Source: Escherichia coli
GTDB lineage: Bacteria; Pseudomonadota; Gammaproteobacteria; Enterobacterales; Enterobacteriaceae
NCBI RefSeq assembly: GCF_030013595.1
Contig: NZ_CP122768.1
Direction: 5' to 3' (one strand)
DNA: 64,000 nt
The translations under genes and the position numbers were made by a program. Shown in pieces: positions 4,037 through 57,826 of this stretch. The notes below the pieces were generated by a model that searched no databases, was not told where the DNA came from, and saw only the letters and a program-made list of their open reading frames with translations. The first letter of the stretch is position 1; every line of letters begins with the position of its first letter.

Positions 4037-5107
4037 TTATTTAATCCGGGCCATCGCGTTTCTCAGTGCCGAATCTGCACCTTCAGTTATCTCCTGGCTT
4101 TTCTGTAATACCGCCTCTGACCGGGTCAGTGCCTGACGCGCCGCCAGTGGTTTCCGGATATGCTCCATCGTCAGCATCGTGTCCTCGTAGCCCTGCTGAC
4201 GCCAGGCGTCGATATGTGCCGACGTGAAACTGAGCAGACCGCCACTGTTGCCACCATCACCTGCATGTTTCAGCCTTTTCCGGGGACGGATTTCAAGGAT
4301 TGTGGTGTCCGGAAAAGCCCGACGATCCCATAAAGAACCGTCACTCAGATGCGTCACAATCACCATATTGCATCCGGCATCCACCAGTGGCGTCACGGGA
4401 GTATTCCCCTGCCTGTTTCGCCATCCGCCCATCCCACCATCACCGTACATTGTTCCCTGAACCTCGCGGGGACGGAACAGCAGAGGCAGCGCGGCTGACG
4501 CCAGTAAAGCTTCTTTCTGCTGCCCGCGGGGCAGACTCTGGATATGCTGAAAAACGGCGTTTTTCGTGGTTCCGGCACCCAGTTCAGCACGAATGCAGTC
4601 AATAATATCCTGCATGCCTCCTTCTGTGGGGTACAGCGACACGTACAGCGGTAGCCCGTCAGCCAGAGCATCTGTATCAAGATAATGATCCATCAGCGCT
4701 GTCAGGGGCTCATCTGACAACAGCGGCTGAATCATCGGATTGTCGAACCCGTTGATTGTCGATATATGGCGAAAAAGCGTCGTAAGCAGTGCGCCCGCAC
4801 GTCCGGGGATCTGGCAGAGGTTCATGGCCTGAACCAGTTTTTTCAGCAATGAAAAGTAAACCGATCTGTTTACCGACAGAACCTGATTATTCCCCAGATG
4901 ATCCCAGAGCGCCTCCAGGCGTAAGGTGGCTTCTGACAGATCGGGAGAGGCCGCGATAATGGCACCATTGAGAGCCCCGATACTGGCTCCTGAGACCATA
5001 CTGATCTGTGCGCCGCACTCTGCCAGTGCCTTAACCACCCCCGCCTGATAAGCGCCCACCGCTCCGCCGCCGGACAGCACCAGCCCCGTTTGCATTTCTG
5101 TACTCAT
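4037..5107 (-). CDS. Patatin-like phospholipase
   Basis: 356-aa ORF; Gly-rich oxyanion motif LSGGGAVGAYQAG, lipase serine motif GASIG (GxSxG), and a DGG aspartate motif (YGDGGMGG) near the C-terminus; ATG at 5107 overlaps stop of upstream gene (ATGA). Confidence 0.8.
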   Translation of the reverse strand: MSTEMQTGLVLSGGGAVGAYQAGVVKALAECGAQISMVSGASIGALNGAIIAASPDLSEATLRLEALWDHLGNNQVLSVNRSVYFSLLKKLVQAMNLCQIPGRAGALLTTLFRHISTINGFDNPMIQPLLSDEPLTALMDHYLDTDALADGLPLYVSLYPTEGGMQDIIDCIRAELGAGTTKNAVFQHIQSLPRGQQKEALLASAALPLLFRPREVQGTMYGDGGMGGWRNRQGNTPVTPLVDAGCNMVIVTHLSDGSLWDRRAFPDTTILEIRPRKRLKHAGDGGNSGGLLSFTSAHIDAWRQQGYEDTMLTMEHIRKPLAARQALTRSEAVLQKSQEITEGADSALRNAMARIK

Positions 5108-6009
5108 GCCTCTCCCTTCTGAAATATTTCATCAACCATACTTTCAGAGAGGCGTTCTGCAGAGCAGAGACGGGGCATACGAACCGGTAAGTGTTCTGCA
5201 GCCTGCGTGGTTGACCAGATCACAGGATGCCGCTCTTCACTGCACCAGTCCCCCAGCCAGTTAACCGCTTCATGCCATTCGTTATCAGCCTGTTCCCGGC
5301 GCTGACCACCAAGCCAGTCCAGTGTGTTCAGACGTACTGTTGCGCTACCGCCACTCTCCCGTGCCATCTGCGTTAATGCTTTATATCTGAGAATATCCAG
5401 TAACTGATTAACCTGGCCTGTTTCACCCTGACGAATCACATCACCAAACGCGCCCCAGCGAAGCTCTTCAAGCGCCACATAACAACGTCCGGCAGGGGAA
5501 AATGACGCGTATCGCCCGGCGCTCCACCACGAGAATATCTGCTCAAGATGTAACTGTGCCCGCTGAACCTGGTCAACACGGTGGAGTTTTTCCTCAAGAT
5601 GATTCAGTTTCTGATGAACCTGTTCTGCCAGAGTGAGTAACTGCTCCCGCGTGTCAGCCGAATAATGCGCCAGCCTGGCAGTATCACTGACCAGTGAACT
5701 GACCCTGTCGTTTACCCGGGTAATCGCGTAGTTTGTGGTGGCAAGTGACGTTGTCAGCTCCGTCAGCCAGCGCAGGGACGCCTCAACGCCCTGTGCAAGC
5801 GACGCATTGATGGCATTCTGCCGTGCAGCGCCTTCGCCGGTCAGCCCCTCTTTTAAACGCCGGAAGAACGTGCGCTCTCCGGCCGTGCGGATATGCTCCT
5901 GTGCAACATCGATTCCGTTTGCGAAATCAACCACAAATTTTTCAGGAAGACAGGTGAGTACCTGACATACCCGGTTATCAGCAATTTGTTGAATAAATGG
6001 TGAAGTCAC
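5104..6009 (-). CDS. Coiled-coil hypothetical protein (YjcZ-like partner of dynamin-like GTPase)
   Basis: 301-aa ORF with GTG start overlapping the dynamin stop (GTGA) and its own stop overlapping the patatin start; no catalytic motif recognised; YjcZ comparison is by size and position only. Confidence 0.55.
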   Translation of the reverse strand: MTSPFIQQIADNRVCQVLTCLPEKFVVDFANGIDVAQEHIRTAGERTFFRRLKEGLTGEGAARQNAINASLAQGVEASLRWLTELTTSLATTNYAITRVNDRVSSLVSDTARLAHYSADTREQLLTLAEQVHQKLNHLEEKLHRVDQVQRAQLHLEQIFSWWSAGRYASFSPAGRCYVALEELRWGAFGDVIRQGETGQVNQLLDILRYKALTQMARESGGSATVRLNTLDWLGGQRREQADNEWHEAVNWLGDWCSEERHPVIWSTTQAAEHLPVRMPRLCSAERLSESMVDEIFQKGEA

Positions 6010-8393
6010 AGCATTGTCTCCAGCTCTTCCCTCAGCGCCTTACTGTCAGTAATGAGCTCAGGAACCCTTTCATTTAATGCCTGAAGTCGCCCGGTAAGCC
6101 GTTCCTGCGCCTGCTGATCGCGTTTATGATCTTCAGAGCTCTGAATCAGCGTGTTACGCAGTTGTTCAACTTTCTCCCTGAATGCGCAGAAAAAGGCATC
6201 GATTTCCTGGCGGACGGGCTGGTTAATATCCTGCTCAATGGATGCCTGCAGCTCCCCGAAATATGCCCGGGTCAGTGACATAACTTCCTCTCTGGCCTTG
6301 TTGATATTGATCACGCTGCGACTCACATCCTCGTCATAGTTTTCCCAGCCCAGGTCACTGGTGCCAAACCATCGACAAACGGTTCCCCATACGCCACTCT
6401 GCCGACGGCGACGGGTGACGGTCTCCGTTCTTTCCTCCATAAGCGCACTCAGATTTATTTTTACCGCGAGCCGGGTCTGTAACTGGCTGACTGCCGGAAA
6501 ACTGATTTTTACGGTAAAGCCCTCATCCTCCAGGCGGGCATTGATGCGACCGGCAATGTTTTCTGTGGCGTACAGGGCCGTGCCACGAAAACCTGTTTCA
6601 ATCCCGCTGACGATTTTCTCCAGCTCAGGCCGGAACTGTGCTTCAGCCTCACGGTGCAGGCTGGTCACGGTCGATTCGATTTGCGTCATCAGTTCAAGGG
6701 CTGCCCTGCGATCACTGAATTTTATTTCGGGGCTGTCCGGATCAAAGTCCCGCATCCTGTCATGCTGATTTCCGGTTCCGAAAATATCGTGAAAGAAAGC
6801 GAATGCGTTTCTCTCCCGGGGCTGCGCTGAATTTTCTTCCTCCAGCATTTGCTGTTCTTTGCGTTTACCGCTTCTGAAATAGTCGTTCAGCTCCTCCTCC
6901 AGTGAGGCACAGACCTTCGTCAGTAATTCCCCGGTTTTGGTATTGATGTCCTCCATGGCCATTCTGACATCACCGGTCACCTGATTCTGACATTCCTCAA
7001 TCTCCTGGATATCCGCCAGCAGGCTGGTAATATGCGCCTGTAGTGACTGAATGCTTTGCTGCAGCCCCTGATGACGTAATGACAGATATTCGCTGACATT
7101 TTCTGCATTCTGCATCAGTTTTGCGGCGGCAGAGTCAACCGCCAGTGCCGCCGCTCTGGAATGGGAGCTCTGTATGACTTCCGTTATCAGTTGATCGATC
7201 AGAGATATATTCCAGAGTTTTTCTGCCTTTTTATTTACCTTAGTGCTGTCTTTCCAGTCGTCCTCTTCCACCATAGGTCCGAAAGCTTCCCTGATAAAAT
7301 CATCGACCCAGGCTTCATCAACCGGAAGCGCACCGTTTTTTCGTAACTCATGAAGCGCACGGTTAGCCAGGTACGCCTGACGTGATGAGCCGGGATAAAC
7401 GCGGGAGGCGGGCAGCACATCGCTGTTCAGCATTGCTGGCACCTTCTGGCGTACGGCATCCGCACCATCACCATTGCGATCTTTTTCATCGAATTTATTG
7501 ACCAGCACAAACAGACGACCGGCTGAGACGTCAGCAATGGCATTAAGCTCTTTACGAACCTCCTCATCGGCTTTCGAGTTCATCTGGGTGTAATCCATCA
7601 CCGCCAGCACCGCAGAGGCTTTCTGTAGTTGATCCCGCATCATCATTTCCATCTGTGGTTGTCCGGCTTCATTAGGGCCGGGGGTATCCAGCAGTGTGAG
7701 TGTTCCCTGACATGCATCCATTCCCACCAGGTGGCTGAACGCCACGTCGATCACCGGTAGTTTCTGCACTTCTGCGTATTCGTCAAAAGGAAATTCAGTC
7801 CCCATTGCCGCAGCAAGACGAACCAGGTCATTTAACGATGCCAGTCCGGTAAAGATTTCGTCTTCCCCGTGGTATTCATTTTTAAGCCAGACATCATCCG
7901 CCAGAATATCCAGTAGTTCGCGGGTATCCCCGGTTTGCTGCAGGGACTGTGCGACTTGCTGCCCTGCCGGGGTGGCGAGTTTTTCCTGCAGTGTGATTAA
8001 TAAATTGCGGACGGGCTGAATATGTTCCAGATGGAGGACCGGTTCCGTTTTTCCGGGAACGTGGCGGATCAATGTCGGTACCGAGGTCATGGGGCGGTTA
8101 CGGTTGGGCAGAATTTCCTGCCCCACAATGGCGTTGATGGTGGTTGATTTGCCCGCCTTCATCGTGCCGACCACAGCCAGCACCATCTCCCTGCGGGCGG
8201 TTTTGATTTGTTCGCCCTCCAGCTCCTCAATTCTTTTCAGCGCTTTCCGTTTATCAAAAAGCAGCCCGTTTTCGTTCTTACTGTCAGATAACACATCCGG
8301 CTCATCAACCATTTGCCGGAGCAGATTGATATTCAGTTGCAAAAGCCGGTCGGCTTCATCACAAAGCAGGGCGATGTTCTTTTCGTGCATCAT
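6006..8393 (-). CDS. Dynamin-like GTPase (CrfC/YjdA-like bacterial dynamin)
   Basis: 795-aa ORF; G1 P-loop VVGTMKAGKSTTINAIVG, G3 LLDTPGPNE, G4 VNKFD; long helical C-terminal region; N-terminal block closely resembles my recollection of E. coli YjdA. Confidence 0.75.
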   Translation of the reverse strand: MMHEKNIALLCDEADRLLQLNINLLRQMVDEPDVLSDSKNENGLLFDKRKALKRIEELEGEQIKTARREMVLAVVGTMKAGKSTTINAIVGQEILPNRNRPMTSVPTLIRHVPGKTEPVLHLEHIQPVRNLLITLQEKLATPAGQQVAQSLQQTGDTRELLDILADDVWLKNEYHGEDEIFTGLASLNDLVRLAAAMGTEFPFDEYAEVQKLPVIDVAFSHLVGMDACQGTLTLLDTPGPNEAGQPQMEMMMRDQLQKASAVLAVMDYTQMNSKADEEVRKELNAIADVSAGRLFVLVNKFDEKDRNGDGADAVRQKVPAMLNSDVLPASRVYPGSSRQAYLANRALHELRKNGALPVDEAWVDDFIREAFGPMVEEDDWKDSTKVNKKAEKLWNISLIDQLITEVIQSSHSRAAALAVDSAAAKLMQNAENVSEYLSLRHQGLQQSIQSLQAHITSLLADIQEIEECQNQVTGDVRMAMEDINTKTGELLTKVCASLEEELNDYFRSGKRKEQQMLEEENSAQPRERNAFAFFHDIFGTGNQHDRMRDFDPDSPEIKFSDRRAALELMTQIESTVTSLHREAEAQFRPELEKIVSGIETGFRGTALYATENIAGRINARLEDEGFTVKISFPAVSQLQTRLAVKINLSALMEERTETVTRRRRQSGVWGTVCRWFGTSDLGWENYDEDVSRSVININKAREEVMSLTRAYFGELQASIEQDINQPVRQEIDAFFCAFREKVEQLRNTLIQSSEDHKRDQQAQERLTGRLQALNERVPELITDSKALREELETML

Positions 8394-18389: not shown

Positions 18390-19028
18390 TCAGCGAACCG
18401 TCCATGCCGGGCTGAAATCCTCTTCCTGAAACAGCTCCGTCAGCCCGCTAATCTGTTTCAATCTGAGAACTTCATCCTGGTCCATACCCAGCTCCGTACC
18501 AATGCGTTCATTCGTCCAGCCCAGGCGCGACAGGTCCCTGACAATATCAGACATTGAGGTTATCTGATGTTTGCCCCTGGCCCGGTTATGTCGGATGGTC
18601 GCAGCAATACGTGAGGCCTGTCCCTTTCTCTCCGGATTAATACAGACCACCGGCAGCCAGCCCTTCAGACGTTTTCCCGTACCTGCTTCCCTGCCCAGCA
18701 CCTGGCGATGAAAACCATCCACCACCAGGTAATGGTTCTTTTCCTCAGACACCACCACCGGTTGTGTGAAACCATCTTTCTCCAGTGACTGCTTCAGCAG
18801 TTTCTTCTCACCCGGCGCCATGACATTAGGATTGTAATCATTGGCCACCACCTCATCTGCTTTTACCCACAGCACACAGTCCACTGGCTCATGTGCAAAA
18901 GGACTGACTTCATGAAGCACTCTGCGCAGGTGATTAAGGGCCTGTATGGTCTCTTCTTCTGGTCGTTCCTGGCTGAAGTACTGACGAATCATGTTGCCAA
19001 TTATCTCCGGTGTCACAGAATCCCCCAT
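18390..19028 (-). CDS. ParB-like nuclease-domain protein with DGQHR-type motif (IbrB/DndB-like)
   Basis: 212 aa; YLVVDGFHRQVLGRE (DG-F/Q-HR motif); start overlaps stop region of upstream PAPS-reductase-like gene by 16 nt. Confidence 0.65.
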   Translation of the reverse strand: MGDSVTPEIIGNMIRQYFSQERPEEETIQALNHLRRVLHEVSPFAHEPVDCVLWVKADEVVANDYNPNVMAPGEKKLLKQSLEKDGFTQPVVVSEEKNHYLVVDGFHRQVLGREAGTGKRLKGWLPVVCINPERKGQASRIAATIRHNRARGKHQITSMSDIVRDLSRLGWTNERIGTELGMDQDEVLRLKQISGLTELFQEEDFSPAWTVR

Positions 19029-20290
19029 TCCTTCCTCCTTTCTTTCATACGCTGCAGATAACGTTCATAGTGCCGGGGTTTGTTCGGACTGAAGGAGAGG
19101 GTCCGGTACCAGAAATCATTCTTTATAAGTGTCTTACAGATACGCCGCCAGGACGGAATATCCCGGCTCCCCAGGTCATTCTCCTGTTCATCCGGGATGT
19201 CATCCGGGAAGCCCCGCGTCTGATACCAGCGCAGGTAGACAGCAATTTTATTACGGTAATGTTCTGCCGTTCTTTCCGGCATCACATCCAGCAGGAACAT
19301 CGCATAGCTGCGCCAGGTATGATGGGCTGGTTTTGATATACGTTTACGCAGGGCAAAATAGGCACCGCTTTCATTGGCATAAAGCGCCCCGCTGGCAGCG
19401 CCTGACACCCGCTCACACATCCTGGCCCAGGTTTCCGGCTCCAGAACATGGTAAAGCCACAGCCCCTTACGTTGTTCAGGACCAAAAGGTTCACAGACAC
19501 GCATGTTGCGTAACGGCACGTCGGCACGGTACATCAGGTCATACAGAGGATTGTAAATGGCACAAGCTCTGGCGTTATATATCCAGATATCGCGGGCTTT
19601 CCAGTCATACAACGGATACATGGTGTAATAAAACCCTTCAGGCGATGCCGTGGTCCAGGGCTTATCATCGGCATATCTCAGTTTGCGCTGAGACACCAGC
19701 CCCATAAAGCGATTGAGGGATTCATCCGCACGAACACCGGTCAGCACTGCCACTCCACACCGGTTACCGGCAAACCAGGAAGAAAATGCCGGAACAAATT
19801 CTTCAAACGTCATGGCATACCGGAAAAAGGGAAAATATGTCATATCCGTAATGGCCTCTTCCGGTGGCTGGCGAACCCAGGTCACTCCTGGCTCCCAGCA
19901 TATCCACTCCGGCTGAAACTGCGAGACGCCGTTTACCGTGGTCAGGGGAAGTGCCACCCAGTAAAAGGTTTCCGTCACATCATGGTACATTTCCCGCATC
20001 TTCTGAATATGTTCAATGGTGCACCGATACTGGGCCTCCCAGTCAATGAACAGAACAGAGAAATGACGTTTTCTCCTGCGGGCCACCTCTGCCACAAGAT
20101 GGAAAAGCACGGTGGAATCCTTTCCACCTGAAAAAGACAGACATACCGACGGAAATGTTTCAAAAATCCACTCAATGCGGGCGATTGCAGCACGCAAAAC
20201 ATTTTCTCCGGTAAGGATTTTTTCGGTTAAAAGCGTATCACTCATTTTCCTGGCTTTATGTCGAATAATTCTGTTTATACATTCAGGCAA
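19013..20290 (-). CDS. PAPS reductase / PP-loop ATP-pyrophosphatase family protein (IbrA/DndC-like)
   Basis: 425 aa; PP-loop SFSGGKDST near N-terminus; long C-terminal extension; translationally coupled to ParB-like gene. Confidence 0.7.
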   Translation of the reverse strand: MPECINRIIRHKARKMSDTLLTEKILTGENVLRAAIARIEWIFETFPSVCLSFSGGKDSTVLFHLVAEVARRRKRHFSVLFIDWEAQYRCTIEHIQKMREMYHDVTETFYWVALPLTTVNGVSQFQPEWICWEPGVTWVRQPPEEAITDMTYFPFFRYAMTFEEFVPAFSSWFAGNRCGVAVLTGVRADESLNRFMGLVSQRKLRYADDKPWTTASPEGFYYTMYPLYDWKARDIWIYNARACAIYNPLYDLMYRADVPLRNMRVCEPFGPEQRKGLWLYHVLEPETWARMCERVSGAASGALYANESGAYFALRKRISKPAHHTWRSYAMFLLDVMPERTAEHYRNKIAVYLRWYQTRGFPDDIPDEQENDLGSRDIPSWRRICKTLIKNDFWYRTLSFSPNKPRHYERYLQRMKERRKEWGIL

Positions 20291-20745
20291 ACTTCATTAA
20301 TAACTCACCGCTTTGGGGATAAATAATAACAACAAAAATCTTCAGATATTAACCTGGTTGTTGGATTTGTTATCACATCCTTTATCCACCTGCTTCTTAC
20401 TGGTAACACACCTGGAAAATCCATGCATTTTCAACATATACTATCCTTTCAACTTGTAAATAAGAAAATATGATGCAGATGGTGAACAATTCAAATATCA
20501 TTTTGCAGGAAGTATTCACTGTAATAGAATTACCCCCTGATAAAGTTTATTCACTAAGGAATTATTCAACAGAAACATTCCCTGTTAGCTTTGAGCAATA
20601 GCACTTATTTTTATATGTATCAGGAATACGTACGTTGATGTAACCAAAACAAAGAAGCCTGTGTCCATGGGGTTCGTACAATTGTGTGTGGCACATGACC
20701 AAATCAGGTTTGAGACCTCCCGCTGCAATATTTTTTATTCAGATT

Positions 20746-23427
20746 TTAGCCTGTCAGGCCTGACAGAAACGCTCCCAACTTCCCTTCTATATCACTGTCT
20801 ATAGTACGTAATCTTAGCAATGGCAGGCCGCATTTCTTCAGTATACTGTTTTTAAGTTCATCACGTTCAGCCTGAACACTGGTCAGATGATAACCTCCAT
20901 CCACTTCAATAACCCCTAATGGAGTCTTCCCGACCTTATAGTAAACAACAAAGTCACAACTGGCCCGGTTACGCATGAATAACTGTTCACGGTGTGTAAA
21001 ATCCCCCCGCTCCAGCGACACCAACTGATTCAGCGCTATTTGTGAATGAAACATCATACTCCGATAACTATCCTGCGACAGGATATCCCGCAACAGGCAG
21101 GCCACAATCTGTTCTGACTTAAAGTGTGAATCATTTGAATTCAATCTACTATTCAGTCGTTCCAGTGATTTGTCATACTCACTGTACAGCAAATCAAATG
21201 CTGATATGACCGGGCTCTCGAAAATCTCTCCGTCATCAGCGTAGTATTTGATGTAACGAATCAGCGCCGCAATATGTCCAGCGTGGCGTTCAAATACATC
21301 ATTACCAGTCACCAGCGTAAATTTATTTCGGGCCCTTGAAACAGCGACATTCACCAGTTCAGGATTATCAACAAACGCGATGTTCCGACTGTGCTGGCTG
21401 CTGCGCTTCTTATCCAGCACAGTGGAAAACACAATTTCATCGCACTCCCGTCCCTGAAATTTATGCACCGTCGATTTCACAAAATCAGCAGGCAGCACTT
21501 TTTCAGCCAGATTAACCTGTGCATTATATGGGGCAATGTATCCCCTGCTACTTTCTTCATCCCAGTAATGACCTTCCAGAGATTCAAGCTCCCTGAGATT
21601 TGAAAAATTACGGGTATGGTTTCCTTTTGCCGTGATGACCAGAGATAATGAGGCTTCACCGGAATCAACCGTTAACGGTATCAGAGCATTATCATAAAAC
21701 TGCTTATTACAAAATTGAATGATTTTAGGATGACAACGATAATGCTCTTTAAGAAGGGTTACTGGCACCATGTTCCTGAACAACATACAAACCGAATCAA
21801 GTAGACTATATTTCTCACAATTATAGTATTCTGCCGGTGGAGATGGGCTGTTCGGGAGTAATACAGGAACATGTGGAAGTTGCTTACGATCCCCTACAAC
21901 GATTACATTACGGGCACATCCCAGTCCCAGAATGCCCGGAACAATATCCTGCTGCGAGGCTTCATCAATAATAACATAATCAAGAAGGGCCCCCTTGCCG
22001 ATAGAGTTAATAATCGAATGCGTACTGCTACCAATAATCGGAAAACGCTTTATAAAACGGTCAAATTCATCCCTGTATGTCTCTGCCGAGAATGAACTTC
22101 TTGTTGAAACATTTCTTCGCAGATGTTGCTTTAAATAAAGCATAGACCATGATGTCAGGCGCCCCAGTAAAATTTTAAAATCAGATTTTTTAAATACTTC
22201 CTCATATTCATTCAGAGAAATTTGTTTTTCCCGGATATTTTTTTCATAATAAGAAAGCTGAAGAGAAGTAAATAGCGCCAGCCTTCTCTCCGGAATCATC
22301 AATGGTTTGACTTTCAGTATCATGAAGTTTAACAACAAATCAATTCTGTTTCTGAATCCAATCCGCCTGTCAGAAAGGTAATGAATATAAGCCATCAGGT
22401 CGGTTGTTTTTTGTGAGGAAAATCGGTATTTGTGAGAAAAAAGCTCCTCCGGTCGAAGATTCTGACTCTGCCATTGCTGCAGGTATTTATACTCAATATT
22501 CAGCTCATTAATTTCTGCTTTTAACGAAGCGACCTGGTTAATGGCATTCAGGTGTTTTTTCACTTGTTGAAGTACATCATCAATCGCATTTGCAGACGGT
22601 GAGTCAGGTAAGACTTCCTCAGAACGCGAAATCGACGTTGAAAAAAACTGTTGCCTGTTCCCCGTACTCCCCAGTCGTGCCATCACATATCCCAGTTGCT
22701 GTTTGTCCATCTTTTCATAAACATTACTGACAGCTGAGTTATTATTGGACAAAATTGCCACTGTTTTATTCTGAATTAATATATTAGCAACAATATTGAG
22801 TATAGTCTGTGTTTTACCTGTTCCAGGTGGTCCTTCAATAACTGAAATCTGTGAGGAAAATGCCCGTTCGACAGCCAGCAACTGACTTTCATTAAGACCA
22901 AACGGAAAAATCAAACCCCATGGCGAATCACGTTTTTTACTCTGTCCTGAACAGTATGCATGCAAGGCGGTATCCGGATGAGGAACTATTTTCTTTATCT
23001 GCCTAAGGATATTCTCATCGATATTTCTGTTATTACCACGGGCATAAAAAATACGTTCATTAGCCACCCTACACAAGTAATTAAACACGGCATGCTCTGT
23101 AAATGCTGAACACTGTTGAAAGTCAAGGCCGGTCGTTTTCATGATGTAGGGTCGTTCACCCTCGCGGTAATAAACAGCAGCATATTTATCACCATATATA
23201 ATAACCAGTTCAGCCCGGGATGTTACAGCGTTCCCTTTCCTTTCGAGGAAAACATTTCGCAAATTTACAGTTGGCGTTATCTGACATACAGAAAGCGGAC
23301 GAGTATATTTTCTCCCGCTGCGAAAATGACAGGTCAGCATAACCTCTCTGTCGTCATTTCCAGCCCACAGCGTCCAGTCGGTAATTTTATGAGTCTTATT
23401 TTCACCGTCAACACAAATCGTGACCAT
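20746..23427 (-). CDS. Superfamily-1 (Upf1/DNA2-like) helicase with N-terminal unknown domain and C-terminal Vsr/DUF559-like endonuclease domain
   Basis: 893 aa; Walker A GPPGTGKT, Walker B IIDEASQ, motif III VVGDRKQLP, YRCHPKIIQFCNKQFY, motif V VHKFQGRECDEIVFS, motif VI VAVSRARNKF; C-terminus CDFVVYY...VIEVDGGYH...AERDELKNSILKKCGLPLLRL resembles the DUF559/Vsr-type PD-(D/E)xK fold. Confidence 0.75.
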   Translation of the reverse strand: MVTICVDGENKTHKITDWTLWAGNDDREVMLTCHFRSGRKYTRPLSVCQITPTVNLRNVFLERKGNAVTSRAELVIIYGDKYAAVYYREGERPYIMKTTGLDFQQCSAFTEHAVFNYLCRVANERIFYARGNNRNIDENILRQIKKIVPHPDTALHAYCSGQSKKRDSPWGLIFPFGLNESQLLAVERAFSSQISVIEGPPGTGKTQTILNIVANILIQNKTVAILSNNNSAVSNVYEKMDKQQLGYVMARLGSTGNRQQFFSTSISRSEEVLPDSPSANAIDDVLQQVKKHLNAINQVASLKAEINELNIEYKYLQQWQSQNLRPEELFSHKYRFSSQKTTDLMAYIHYLSDRRIGFRNRIDLLLNFMILKVKPLMIPERRLALFTSLQLSYYEKNIREKQISLNEYEEVFKKSDFKILLGRLTSWSMLYLKQHLRRNVSTRSSFSAETYRDEFDRFIKRFPIIGSSTHSIINSIGKGALLDYVIIDEASQQDIVPGILGLGCARNVIVVGDRKQLPHVPVLLPNSPSPPAEYYNCEKYSLLDSVCMLFRNMVPVTLLKEHYRCHPKIIQFCNKQFYDNALIPLTVDSGEASLSLVITAKGNHTRNFSNLRELESLEGHYWDEESSRGYIAPYNAQVNLAEKVLPADFVKSTVHKFQGRECDEIVFSTVLDKKRSSQHSRNIAFVDNPELVNVAVSRARNKFTLVTGNDVFERHAGHIAALIRYIKYYADDGEIFESPVISAFDLLYSEYDKSLERLNSRLNSNDSHFKSEQIVACLLRDILSQDSYRSMMFHSQIALNQLVSLERGDFTHREQLFMRNRASCDFVVYYKVGKTPLGVIEVDGGYHLTSVQAERDELKNSILKKCGLPLLRLRTIDSDIEGKLGAFLSGLTG

Positions 23428-33540: not shown

Positions 33541-36205
33541 ATTCTGGCGAACAACTGAACTAATACATCAGAATCTGCATTATGTTAAATAAATATAAAA
33601 AGATGGTTTAAATACCCCGTTACTTTTGACTTACACTATACGGTATCGCATCGTTTAATATTCGCACCGGCCAGATTTTTATTTCTATTAGTTGTCACAA
33701 TACTGAATGCGTACGACCACAGTATTCTGGCTCCTGTGTGGTTATGCTTTAATTCTGCGTTCCGGGCAGATAAGCAGTTGCTTGCAGGAATCCTTCTTGT
33801 GTTAATGTCAGTTCCCCTTTTACCAGTGCTGATTTCCACATTCCGTCCAACAGAGCTTATAGCCTTTCCCTGGATTATAGCATTGTCCGGCTGAAGTTCT
33901 TTTTGAATAATAATAGAAGCACTGCTGGCAGATCCAGTCCGTTTTTCATAACCCACTGTACTGATAACCATAATCTAATCAGTAGAAATTGAGTCGAAAA
34001 TAAGCACTACTCCATACAGGATAATTAGAGGTCAGTTTGATTATTCACAATTCATCATCAGCATTTTCTATTTCTGACGAAATCAATATGAAAATAACCA
34101 TATATGATAATTATTATAATAACGGCTTTAATTGGAATACATATATTACAACGTATTATATATAATTGGTATTCTGGGAACTATATTCTCAAAATACAGT
34201 AGAAACGAGGTATGTTTCTGGTGGAAAGGACAGTGGGATTAAAAAGTAAGAATTGATAAAAAAAACGCCAGCAACACATAGTGCCGGCGGAGGGAATACC
34301 CCATGGAGAAAATGTGATGCCTAGAGCATCATGAATATATAATTAAAAATAGTTAGCGTTGTCAATACTTTCACAAAAATAATTTTCGTAGTATAGAAAG
34401 ATATTTTTATGCATGACCTACCTGAATTTGCTCCGGGTAGAGGTTATAAATAAAAATTGAATCACGACAAACACAATATTCATAGTATGGCGATGCCTAC
34501 GCCAGCAAGAATAGCGCCAATAATATTGGGAATATAATAGACACCAGACGCACAGGCATCTCACTCCTTAACAAACAACAATCAGGATATTTACTTTTAC
34601 CAAGCTAACTGTTTACACCCAAAGTACACACAATTAACCATTCAATAACAAATGGCAATATCCATAGCCATACGACTTTACCTTGTAATGTTCGGTATTT
34701 CTTTATAATTATTCTGGGAAATCTAACATTTATTTTTAAAATCAAATTATCTTGTTGTTTAAAAATAAGTTCACATACTTTATCATCTTCTTCCGCCATC
34801 AACATCTCTGCATACTTAAACATTTCAGAACGTTCCTTTAGCACAGAAGAGTAATTATATGTCCAGTTCCCAGGCAATAATGCTTATGGATATTTAATTC
34901 ATAATTTAGAGAATATTTTGCAATAATATTTGGCAGTATTCAGAAATACCTGAAAAATCATACTATACAGCCCTAGGGAATGGATAAAGATTCTAACAAA
35001 GCATTTCAACAATATATACTTGTTAAAAATCCATATCGAAATGCCGTTGCAGCATTAATATATGCCTCATTCATAAAATGTAAAAGAGCAAGCTCGTACC
35101 AGTAGGGGGGAAATTCATTGACATGTCCTGTCAATACGTACAGAGCCCTGCCATGCTTGCCAGCACGTAACAATTCCGCCCCCAGTAACCAGCGTGTTCC
35201 CTGATTATTCTCAGGGTTATATGTTAGTATTTTATCAATGAGTATAACGGCATCCTGATGACGCTGTAAATGAACATTCGCCAGAATTGCAGCATAAAGA
35301 GCGCAAATGCATATGCCAGATGAGCGTGAATATCAATGATGTCAGGAGCATGTCAGGCAAGACGCCTGAGTTTGTTGACGTAATTTGTTTCGTTTATTTC
35401 ATCACTATCGTATGCGTCAAGAGTTTTTTCAAACTCATCCCGAAATGGGCCAAGCCTGGTTTCAGGAAATAAGAAATACCCTTGGTTATTGTTCACTTAA
35501 AAGTATAATTTGTAATTCAAATCCTGAGCCTGTAAAGCGGGGAGTAACATATTCTATTCTGAAGAGAATAAAAGTCGTGATGCGATGTATCAAGCCCGGA
35601 TTGTAATCCCAGATTAACATAGATCACAAAACAACTTATTCTTCACTAACGTCAAGATAAATATCGTTGTATGCCTTATCACGACTACGAATACCAGCAA
35701 GATACAACTGACATACGGAAAGATACCACGTTTTTTACTCCCGAAAATAACGCTAAAAAGCTACTTCCCCATCGTTTGTCCTTAGTATTGCCAGCGCCAA
35801 CAATGTGGGCTGACATGATAAAGCTGTCTAGGAAATTGTTCGCCTCCTCAGCGGACAATCCAAATGGTGATTGTCTCTGTTAAACGTTTATTTTGAAGGT
35901 CGACTGAATAAGGTGATGACGCTGTAGAATTTTTCACGTGCCACAGAATTTTGAACGCTTTCTCTTACAATATTTCAATGTTTCTATCAGTATTCGCCGG
36001 AAGAAGTCATCGACCAAATCATCCCAGTCGTCTCGCATCACTGACCATTCATGGTTGACATGTGGTGGAAATCCGCTTCTACAGTAACCATTTTTTATTC
36101 GCAAAACCGAACACGCCATACGGATAGCTGTTAACTGGCATGCCGAGGCAGTCGTTATTTATATTTGGTTTTGTCAATAATCTTTATTTTTTGTAAAAGG
36201 CAAAT

Positions 36206-57282: not shown

Positions 57283-57582
57283 CCGCACAGCTTCAAACTC
57301 CACATGCACACGCAAGCGACCAAATTTCAAATGGTCTTATGCCGTGCGCACAGTCATAAGAAGCGCATGCGGAAAGTCAGAAAATATCTTAAGACGCAGA
57401 TTTTAAAGGCGTTTTTATGCCAGTCTGCCGGGAATACACAGTAGTCCGGTTGTCCGGAAGCACCACGGTAATCCGAAGGAAAAATCAACGTACCTCAATC
57501 ACCGTAGTGATATCCGTTCCCAGAGGCTAAACGGATGTACCACCATAAAGGCATCCTCTTTCAGGCTACGAGGATATTGCAA

Positions 57583-57671
57583 TCACCCGAAGGCGTTTCT
57601 CTCAGATTGCTGAAACATTGGCTGGCAGTCACCCGAAGGCGTCCCTCTCAGACTGCTGGAACATTGGCTGG
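57583..57671 (+). repeat. Tandem direct repeat, 2 x 43 bp separated by 3 bp
   Basis: TCACCCGAAGGCGTTTCTCTCAGATTGCTGAAACATTGGCTGG / TCACCCGAAGGCGTCCCTCTCAGACTGCTGGAACATTGGCTGG. Confidence 0.8.
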
Positions 57672-57826
57672 TCGCAAAAGCGACAGTTAATGCAAATACA
57701 GGTTAACAAAAAGGGAAATCTGCCGTCAACCCAACCATATGAACATGTTGATTTCATTATGAATGTGATGTTCTAATATAAATTAATCAGTAACTTCATA
57801 AAAAGAATATAAGAAACAGATAATGC

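Follow-up and report, generated by a model that had tools for sequence, protein, structure and literature searches.

The ibrA-ibrB locus

The stretch of DNA examined here, a window of 64,000 nucleotides from Escherichia coli (assembly GCF_030013595.1, contig NZ_CP122768.1), carries two overlapping genes, ibrA and ibrB, that encode a PP-loop protein and a smaller ParB-like protein. An earlier note, made from the sequence alone, had described them as a DndB/DndC-like couple predicted to modify DNA, and had remarked on a resemblance to the IbrB/IbrA regulators. It was the latter remark that named the genes correctly. Over 1.9 kb the sequence is 100% nucleotide-identical to the chromosomes of E. 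coli O145:H28, O157 and porcine enterotoxigenic E. coli (ETEC), in which RefSeq names the products "IbrB-like domain-containing protein" (WP_000502842.1) and "phosphoadenosine phosphosulfate reductase" (WP_001285508.1). The pair of Escherichia phage PhiR5_2, 87-91% identical in amino acid sequence, is annotated "IbrA / IbrB, co-activator of prophage gene expression", and UniRef and SEED give the same name. Judged by sequence, the pair is almost certainly an ibrA-ibrB operon of the IbrA/IbrB family (YbdN/YbdM in K-12), and as such it is already known: its genes bear names and annotations, and hundreds of sequenced E. coli have them in identical form.

Both are evidently real genes and not chance open reading frames (ORFs), because the family matches are strong (IbrB to phrog_2159, E = 1.8e-82; IbrA to phrog_2302, E = 5.5e-81, and to Pfam DUF3440), because the ratio of nonsynonymous to synonymous substitution rates is 0.05-0.10 for both genes against E. 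coli and phage alleles 5-13% diverged in protein sequence, and because the homologues, clustered at 90% identity, fall into more than 6000 groups. The IbrA family alone comprises 1785 clusters at 50% identity (E <= 1e-3). The two genes are under strong purifying selection, co-inherited and translationally coupled.

The longest ibrA ORF (19013-20290, minus strand, TTG start) would encode the 425 amino acids given in the earlier note. That frame exists; the most likely start is nevertheless the ATG at 20245 and not the TTG at 20290, giving a product of 410 residues. RefSeq coordinates of identical genomes use this ATG, and in alignment diverse IbrA homologues begin at about residues 8-15 of the 410-residue form, so that the extension is probably untranslated. 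The 16-nt overlap of the two genes (19013-19028) was borne out by direct reading and by RefSeq coordinates in identical genomes: the ibrB ATG at 19028 follows an AGGAGG and falls within the 3' end of ibrA, whose TGA occupies 19015-19013. Both motifs of the note were likewise confirmed, VVDGFHR in the 212-residue protein, which carries HYLVVDGFHRQVLG (motif stretch HYLVVDGFHRQ), and SGGKDS in the larger one, within LSFSGGKDSTV.

Table 1. Coordinates of the ibrAB genes and adjoining features in the window
Feature	Position	Strand	Remarks
Hypothetical gene after perC, accessory to the ibrAB-perC block	17413..18021	-	202 aa; common allele 214 aa
perC, PerC-family transcriptional activator	18042..18311	-	Pfam PerC E = 2.9e-37; RefSeq annotation
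ibrB-like gene	18390..19028	-	212 aa; ParB/sulfiredoxin-fold N-domain + helix-turn-helix; own AGGAGG ribosome-binding site
ibrA-like gene	19013..20245	-	410 aa; PP-loop core + DUF3440; ATG per RefSeq
AT-rich 0.5-kb region upstream of ibrA	20246..20745	-	33-36% GC; several sigma-70-like hexamer pairs
Superfamily 1 (SF1) helicase, AAA_11/AAA_12 + C-terminal DUF2726 nuclease-like domain	20746-23427	-	893 aa; Pfam/PADLOC

Conserved residues and folds of IbrA and IbrB

IbrA consists of a PP-loop (SGGKDS) ATP-pyrophosphatase core, at about residues 15-255, of the type shared by phosphoadenosine phosphosulfate (PAPS) reductase, CysD and flavin mononucleotide (FMN) adenylyltransferase, followed by a helical DUF3440 domain at about residues 258-410; Pfam matches the core as PAPS_reduct, split into two segments, and then DUF3440 (E = 7e-24). 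In an alignment of 78 homologues, with identities down to 27%, S39-G-G-K-D-S44, D68/E70, G170-x-R-x-x-E-S176 of the motif GxRxDES and P211-x-x-D-W215...D219 of the motif YPxYDW...D are invariant or more than 90% conserved. Because the PP-loop active site is invariant or nearly so, catalysis by IbrA is under selection. The same alignment contains no invariant Cys column; the best one (Cys98) is 86% Cys and is Ala both in the IbrA of the window and in YbdN. IbrA therefore has neither a 4Fe-4S triad nor a Cys dyad. The enzymes nearest to it in structure act on small molecules (sulfate, FMN, and adenosine phosphosulfate (APS) or PAPS) rather than nucleic acids. Fusions of IbrA to a ParB or helicase domain were sought as Rosetta-stone evidence and rejected, the long homologues having N- or C-terminal extensions of unassigned type. 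Among these long proteins one is fused to an ABC-ATPase fragment and one, P0413 (631 aa), has an intein/homing-endonuclease-like insert of about 240 residues between the YDW motif and DUF3440; an 872-aa ORF in viral locus L038 was set aside as an over-extended frame in GC-rich DNA.

The N-terminal domain of IbrB carries the motifs NDYNPN, DGF(T)QP and VVDGFHR and is followed by TIRHNRARGxH, which is almost invariant across the family. Among 43 homologues the motifs NDYNPN, DGFHR and TIRHNRARG are at least 90% conserved; D104 and G105 are invariant and H107 and R108 at least 90% conserved, with Phe standing where DGQHR proteins have Gln. The DGxHR pattern itself is found in several branches of the ParB/sulfiredoxin (Srx) fold. 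A profile alignment of IbrB with the box I-box II region of ParB, Noc and Spo0J (E = 1e-7) places DGFHR at the GERR box (GERR aligned to GFHR) and NPN at the QPR of box I. The structural model (predicted local distance difference test score, pLDDT, 85.7) is nearest to KorB, PadC, the pNOB8 ParB N-domain, sulfiredoxin and Srx-fold kinases, and its C-terminus forms a helix-turn-helix (HTH) of the sigma-region-4/LuxR type, about 20 residues beyond which the chain ends. IbrB accordingly has a ParB/Srx nucleotide-binding fold joined to an HTH. Some viral homologues add a Cys/His-rich C-terminal domain of about 150 residues (WECHKAGFY...SCEHYLTN...) that has no Pfam or PHROG match; genes for such proteins sit directly upstream of ibrA in L040:4163-5413, L041:5815-7005, L044:5787-6998 and about 12 more IMG/VR loci.

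Relationship to Dnd, CysH and BREX proteins

The fold assignments of the earlier note were correct, and what remains of the proposed relationship to DndB and DndC is a likeness of superfamily fold: in both couples a ParB/Srx protein of the DGxHR type is paired with a PAPS-reductase-like protein bearing SGGKDS. IbrA has this PP-loop feature of DndC, which does not discriminate because it is common to the whole PP-loop superfamily. Membership in the Dnd families did not survive the profile searches that the earlier note had suggested. The DndC model TIGR03183 scored 14.2 bits with IbrA, far below its cut-off of 290.4, and the PADLOC DndC models 16-19 bits (2e-4), while the DndB (TIGR03233) and DGQHR (TIGR03187) models gave no match to IbrB even at E <= 10. 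To our knowledge, neither DUF3440 in IbrA nor the combination of TIRHNRARG and HTH in IbrB has been associated with DndB or DndC. The [4Fe-4S] cluster that DndC holds on three cysteines, and its Cys dyad (PMC10853773, PMC11662687), are without counterpart in IbrA. The absence of DndA, DndD and DndE partners was upheld, none of these, nor of the DndFGH proteins that often accompany them, being annotated within +/-20 kb in the identical genomes or present in the other E. coli and viral contexts examined. Given the DndC score, the lack of any DndB or DGQHR match, the lack of Fe-S cysteines and the lack of DndA/D/E, the couple resembles DndB/DndC at the superfamily level only and is not a Dnd phosphorothioation module.

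Assignment to sulfate assimilation fared no better. CysH models gave 33 bits against a cut-off of 254 (TIGR02057) and 29 against 165 (TIGR00434), with no conserved Cys in IbrA, and CysD gave 31 against 195. As these scores lie so far below the cut-offs, the product name "PAPS reductase" and the label "cysH auxiliary metabolic gene" are misleading. CysD, CysH and eukaryotic FMN adenylyltransferase differ further: they work on small molecules, lack DUF3440 and have no partner that binds DNA. The best match to IbrA in PADLOC-DB v2 was BrxP of type 4 BREX (9e-8), yet that match is confined to about 80 N-terminal residues in a model of 779 positions. BrxP shares the PAPS-reductase-like PP-loop domain and its context is one of DNA modification and defence; the pair here lacks Brx neighbours, DUF4007 and a Cys-rich region. 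With no match to IbrB in that database, and for IbrA only the partial BrxP and weak DndC matches, identification as a known anti-phage system was rejected.

Homologues in K-12 and in phages

A 63%-identical paralogous pair, ybdN-ybdM, was found with a more sensitive search in 5418 of 5426 E. coli genomes. In K-12 (L004:4694-6516) these genes overlap and adjoin the gene of the LysR repressor citR/ybdO. YbdN and YbdM are like the pair of the window in architecture, gene overlap and the Ala at the Cys98 position, each with 58-59% amino acid identity; they differ in belonging to the core genome, in having a LysR repressor of their own and in standing apart from any PerC or helicase gene, whereas the pair of the window is accessory and island-borne. 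CitR tightly represses the ybdNM operon (PMC9068703), and citR deletion raises ybdN by 5.5 log2 and ybdM by 2.5 log2 (PMC9068703, Table 1). The same deletion also induces the CysB regulon of sulfate assimilation in its entirety, together with the flagellar regulon (PMC9068703). This coincidence is a correlation only, and serves as a lead to a sulfur-linked or regulatory activity of the family.

IbrA homologues are encoded in 224 phage GenBank records, and the family occurs in phages of Firmicutes, Bacteroidetes, Actinobacteria, Proteobacteria and Asgard archaea. Carriers include strictly lytic phages (Flavobacterium phages and Pipefish-type mycobacteriophages) as well as temperate ones. Of 77 IMG/VR loci, 61 have a ParB-like partner gene on the same strand no more than four genes from ibrA, and in 53 it is directly adjacent (30 downstream, 23 upstream). 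The second commonest neighbour is an SNF2-type helicase (18/77 loci), usually immediately upstream. In Firmicutes prophages and phages (L006, L007, and L012-L014 at 6001-7816 with the gene upstream) an SNF2-IbrA-IbrB trio sits between the lysis genes and the integrase/attachment-site end, a "moron" position, and Streptococcus and Lactobacillus phages likewise have it between lysis genes and attachment site. In Pipefish-type mycobacteriophages the terminase gene is directly preceded by one IbrA-like and two ParB-like genes; in Mycobacterium phage Abinghost (L008:1-4474) the order is ParB-like gene, two small ORFs, PAPS-reductase-like gene, second ParB-like gene and large terminase, and no small terminase is annotated. 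Phage pairs adjoin antirepressors or lie at module boundaries. No sulfur-donor, nuclease or methylase family recurs near the phage ibrA loci.

Genomic neighbourhood in E. coli

A copy of ibrAB is held by 2028 of the 5426 complete E. coli genomes, counted at >=80% coverage of the segment and megablast sensitivity. The window lies in an island associated with tRNA-Ser, in which a CP4-type module and cah, IS66, iha and ter genes are also present; near certainly, this island is of the tRNA-Ser-inserted tellurite-resistance/adherence type.

Downstream, perC begins 78 nt after ibrB on the same strand and is probably co-transcribed with ibrAB. The perC-hypothetical gene-ibrB junction occurs in 1016 genomes, about half of those that carry ibrAB, and perC is outside the universal ibrAB core. 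The hypothetical gene that follows has no NCBIfam, PHROG or PADLOC match. Near 17505 its A-run is one base shorter than in the common allele (RM12581 and most genomes), and the frame is therefore shifted, with an altered tail. Upstream, the AT-rich region is presumed from consensus matches alone to be the promoter/regulatory region of an ibrAB(-perC) operon.

Beyond it lies the helicase-nuclease gene, whose product matches the PADLOC models for Mokosh MkoA/MkoC, PDC-S37 and Hhe helicases; it is plausibly a stand-alone defence gene. A link of this gene to the pair, at which the assays named in the earlier note hint, was not sustained: the ibrA-helicase junction is present in 621 of about 2028 ibrAB-carrying genomes, the helicase gene has 42% GC against 52% for ibrAB, and other contexts lack it. 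The Nissle-type ibrAB allele stands alone between unrelated genes, and strain A1_136 has ibrAB, perC and the hypothetical gene with another gene upstream. An obligatory partnership was accordingly rejected; the helicase-nuclease gene neighbours ibrA in certain lineages only and is no conserved partner. In A1_136 (L003:1-5552) ibrAB-perC adjoins a Shango-like trio of a TerB-N-domain protein, an ATPase and a DEAD/DEAH helicase, which suggests a defence-island setting for that copy. The sole constant of the E. coli contexts examined is the ibrAB pair.

Function of the IbrA-IbrB pair

Experimental knowledge of the family goes back to an E. coli reference strain. The overlapping ibrA and ibrB genes were reportedly cloned from ECOR-9 by Sandt, Hopper & Hill in 2002 (J Bacteriol 184:3640), are said to activate together the prophage-borne eib genes, and reportedly have near-identical counterparts in two O-islands of O157:H7. 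The eib activation is restated from that work in a later paper, in which adherence of Shiga toxin-producing E. coli to epithelial cells induces ibrB together with perC and the gene after it (PMC7649339). Trans-activation of prophage eib is the only experimental phenotype known for the family. ECOR-9 ibrAB and the pair of the window agree in two-gene architecture, species and island type; the reported phenotype is that of the ECOR-9 alleles.

The reading preferred here, tentatively and as something short of probable, is that the pair makes up a regulatory complex, bound to DNA and dependent on nucleotide, which turns on genes of prophages or of other horizontal origin and requires adenylation by IbrA to do so. 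IbrA and IbrB would work as one unit, because translation of their genes is coupled here and most homologous loci keep the two side by side. IbrB may bind DNA through its ParB/Srx-fold nucleotide-binding domain and HTH, and IbrA, as CysD and FMN adenylyltransferase do, would use its PP-loop to cleave ATP to AMP and pyrophosphate and adenylate a substrate, be it DNA, protein or a small molecule. The two proteins would form a complex which, once on DNA, might turn on prophage or acquired genes in the way that VirB and KorB, of the ParB family, control transcription, with IbrA catalysis needed for the switch. The context is regulatory as well: a PerC activator gene lies downstream, the K-12 paralogue is CitR-repressed, and phage pairs occur near antirepressors.

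On this reading the complex is functionally nearest to the ParB-family transcription regulators. IbrB has the ParB N-domain fold of the ParB/Noc/KorB/VirB clamps, and the candidate class of CTP-dependent clamps was rejected on the replacement of GERR by GFHR and of QPR by NPN and on the missing dimerisation domain. KorB, VirB, Noc and PadC have instead a GERR box II, an Arg in box I (Asn in IbrB) and a C-terminal dimerisation domain, and are without an enzymatic partner such as IbrB has in IbrA.

Several points weigh against a regulatory complex. The DGFHR that replaces the GERR box supplies no catalytic Glu, and IbrB has no obvious C-terminal dimerisation domain, so that a CTP clamp of the VirB/KorB type is unsupported and IbrB falls outside that class. 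The eib phenotype is known by the title of the 2002 paper and by papers citing it, and the route to eib activation may be an indirect one, by way of DNA modification, prophage induction or a metabolite, for instance. The literature searched yielded no mechanistic or biochemical study of IbrA, IbrB, YbdN or YbdM, only mentions at the level of annotation. Finally, pure regulation leaves carriage by lytic phages and the conserved adenylating active site unexplained.

Carriage by both lytic and temperate phages, and the near-invariant PP-loop, speak for the DNA-modification couple inferred in the earlier note, in which IbrB would target DNA and IbrA would adenylate a backbone phosphate or base oxygen, the adenylate then being substituted or kept; eib activation and the benefit to phages (restriction protection, counter-silencing) would follow from the mark. 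This is the main rival reading, though an unlikely one. IbrA is superfamily kin of DndC and BrxP, ParB-fold partners accompany the DNA-modifying enzymes of the Dnd and Dpd systems (PMC10853773, PMC12839542), SNF2-type helicases lie by ibrA in the viral loci and Firmicutes prophages described above, and a methyltransferase gene follows the pair in Bacillus phage 031MP002. On the other hand, the DndC hallmarks are missing, both in score and in Fe-S cysteines; IbrB is without a PADLOC match; no sulfur donor, DndD/E-like protein or restriction partner recurs in the neighbourhoods examined; and the structurally nearest enzymes act on small molecules. The near-universality of ybdNM in E. coli is a further difficulty, eased by the fact that the operon is normally repressed, and we know of no report of an unexplained DNA modification in K-12. 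The broader form of the idea, in which IbrA/IbrB and YbdN/YbdM are a phage-spread nucleic-acid-modifying enzyme whose ParB/Srx-HTH protein places a Cys-independent PP-loop adenylator to make a new, non-phosphorothioate mark, is unlikely as well. If it were true, both the activation of prophage genes and the spread of the pair among bacterial and archaeal phages, lytic and temperate alike, would follow from the mark.

Readings that concern defence, packaging or sulfur metabolism are less likely than DNA modification. An anti-phage or inter-element conflict system formed with the upstream SF1 helicase-DUF2726 gene, or a prophage exclusion module, would suit the mobile island, the defence-model matches of the helicase-nuclease, the adjoining Shango-like cluster of A1_136 and the moron position of the SNF2-IbrA-IbrB trio in Firmicutes prophages. 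It is improbable nonetheless: most ibrAB genomes lack the helicase junction, the 0.5 kb of AT-rich DNA and the GC difference separate the genes, no defence model matches IbrB and those matching IbrA do so weakly and partially, and a core-genome ybdNM and copies in lytic phages fit it poorly. A packaging or late-gene recognition factor of the small-terminase kind, with the chromosomal copies as domesticated remnants, would account for the place of the Pipefish-type genes directly before a large terminase with no small terminase annotated, and for the nearness of Arthrobacter and Bacillus phage copies to genome ends; it is very improbable, as the Streptococcus/Lactobacillus phages and Firmicutes prophages carry the pair after the lysis module, far from the terminase, and the E. 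coli chromosomal copies are strongly purified with no phage structural genes nearby. Equally hard to credit, and if anything more so, is a sulfur-assimilation enzyme (PAPS/APS reductase, an auxiliary metabolic gene). The PAPS_reduct matches and RefSeq product name point that way, as do several phage papers, surveys of viral "cysH" take in the DUF3440 clade (10.1101/2021.01.05.425418), and the coincidence of ybdNM derepression with CysB regulon induction in the citR deletion, a correlation only, would agree. The CysH and CysD scores argue otherwise, as do the obligatory ParB-HTH partner and DUF3440, neither of which has a role in sulfate reduction, and without an invariant Cys IbrA lacks a counterpart to the C-terminal Cys with which CysH catalyses. 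The PP-loop of CysH is moreover degenerate, unlike the canonical ATP-type loop of IbrA.

As a discovery the locus itself is minor, its genes being annotated and named; the interest lies in the biochemistry of a widespread family, present in almost every E. coli as ybdNM and, in about 38% of strains, a second time on an island. The label of a sulfur auxiliary metabolic gene (cysH) is routinely, and wrongly, given to the family, and finding the adenylation substrate of IbrA would correct that annotation and could reveal a new ParB-fold mode of gene activation or a new nucleic-acid modification.

Other features of the island

Elsewhere in the window, three overlapping minus-strand genes at 4037-8393 encode patatin-like phospholipase, RdcB-family and dynamin-family proteins, as annotated in an identical ETEC genome, and look like an island operon. 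Rfam matches above the gathering score, all on the minus strand, are the enterohemorrhagic E. coli small RNA Esr41 (34257-34330), STAXI RNA (57534-57685) and IS102 RNA (11369-11605).

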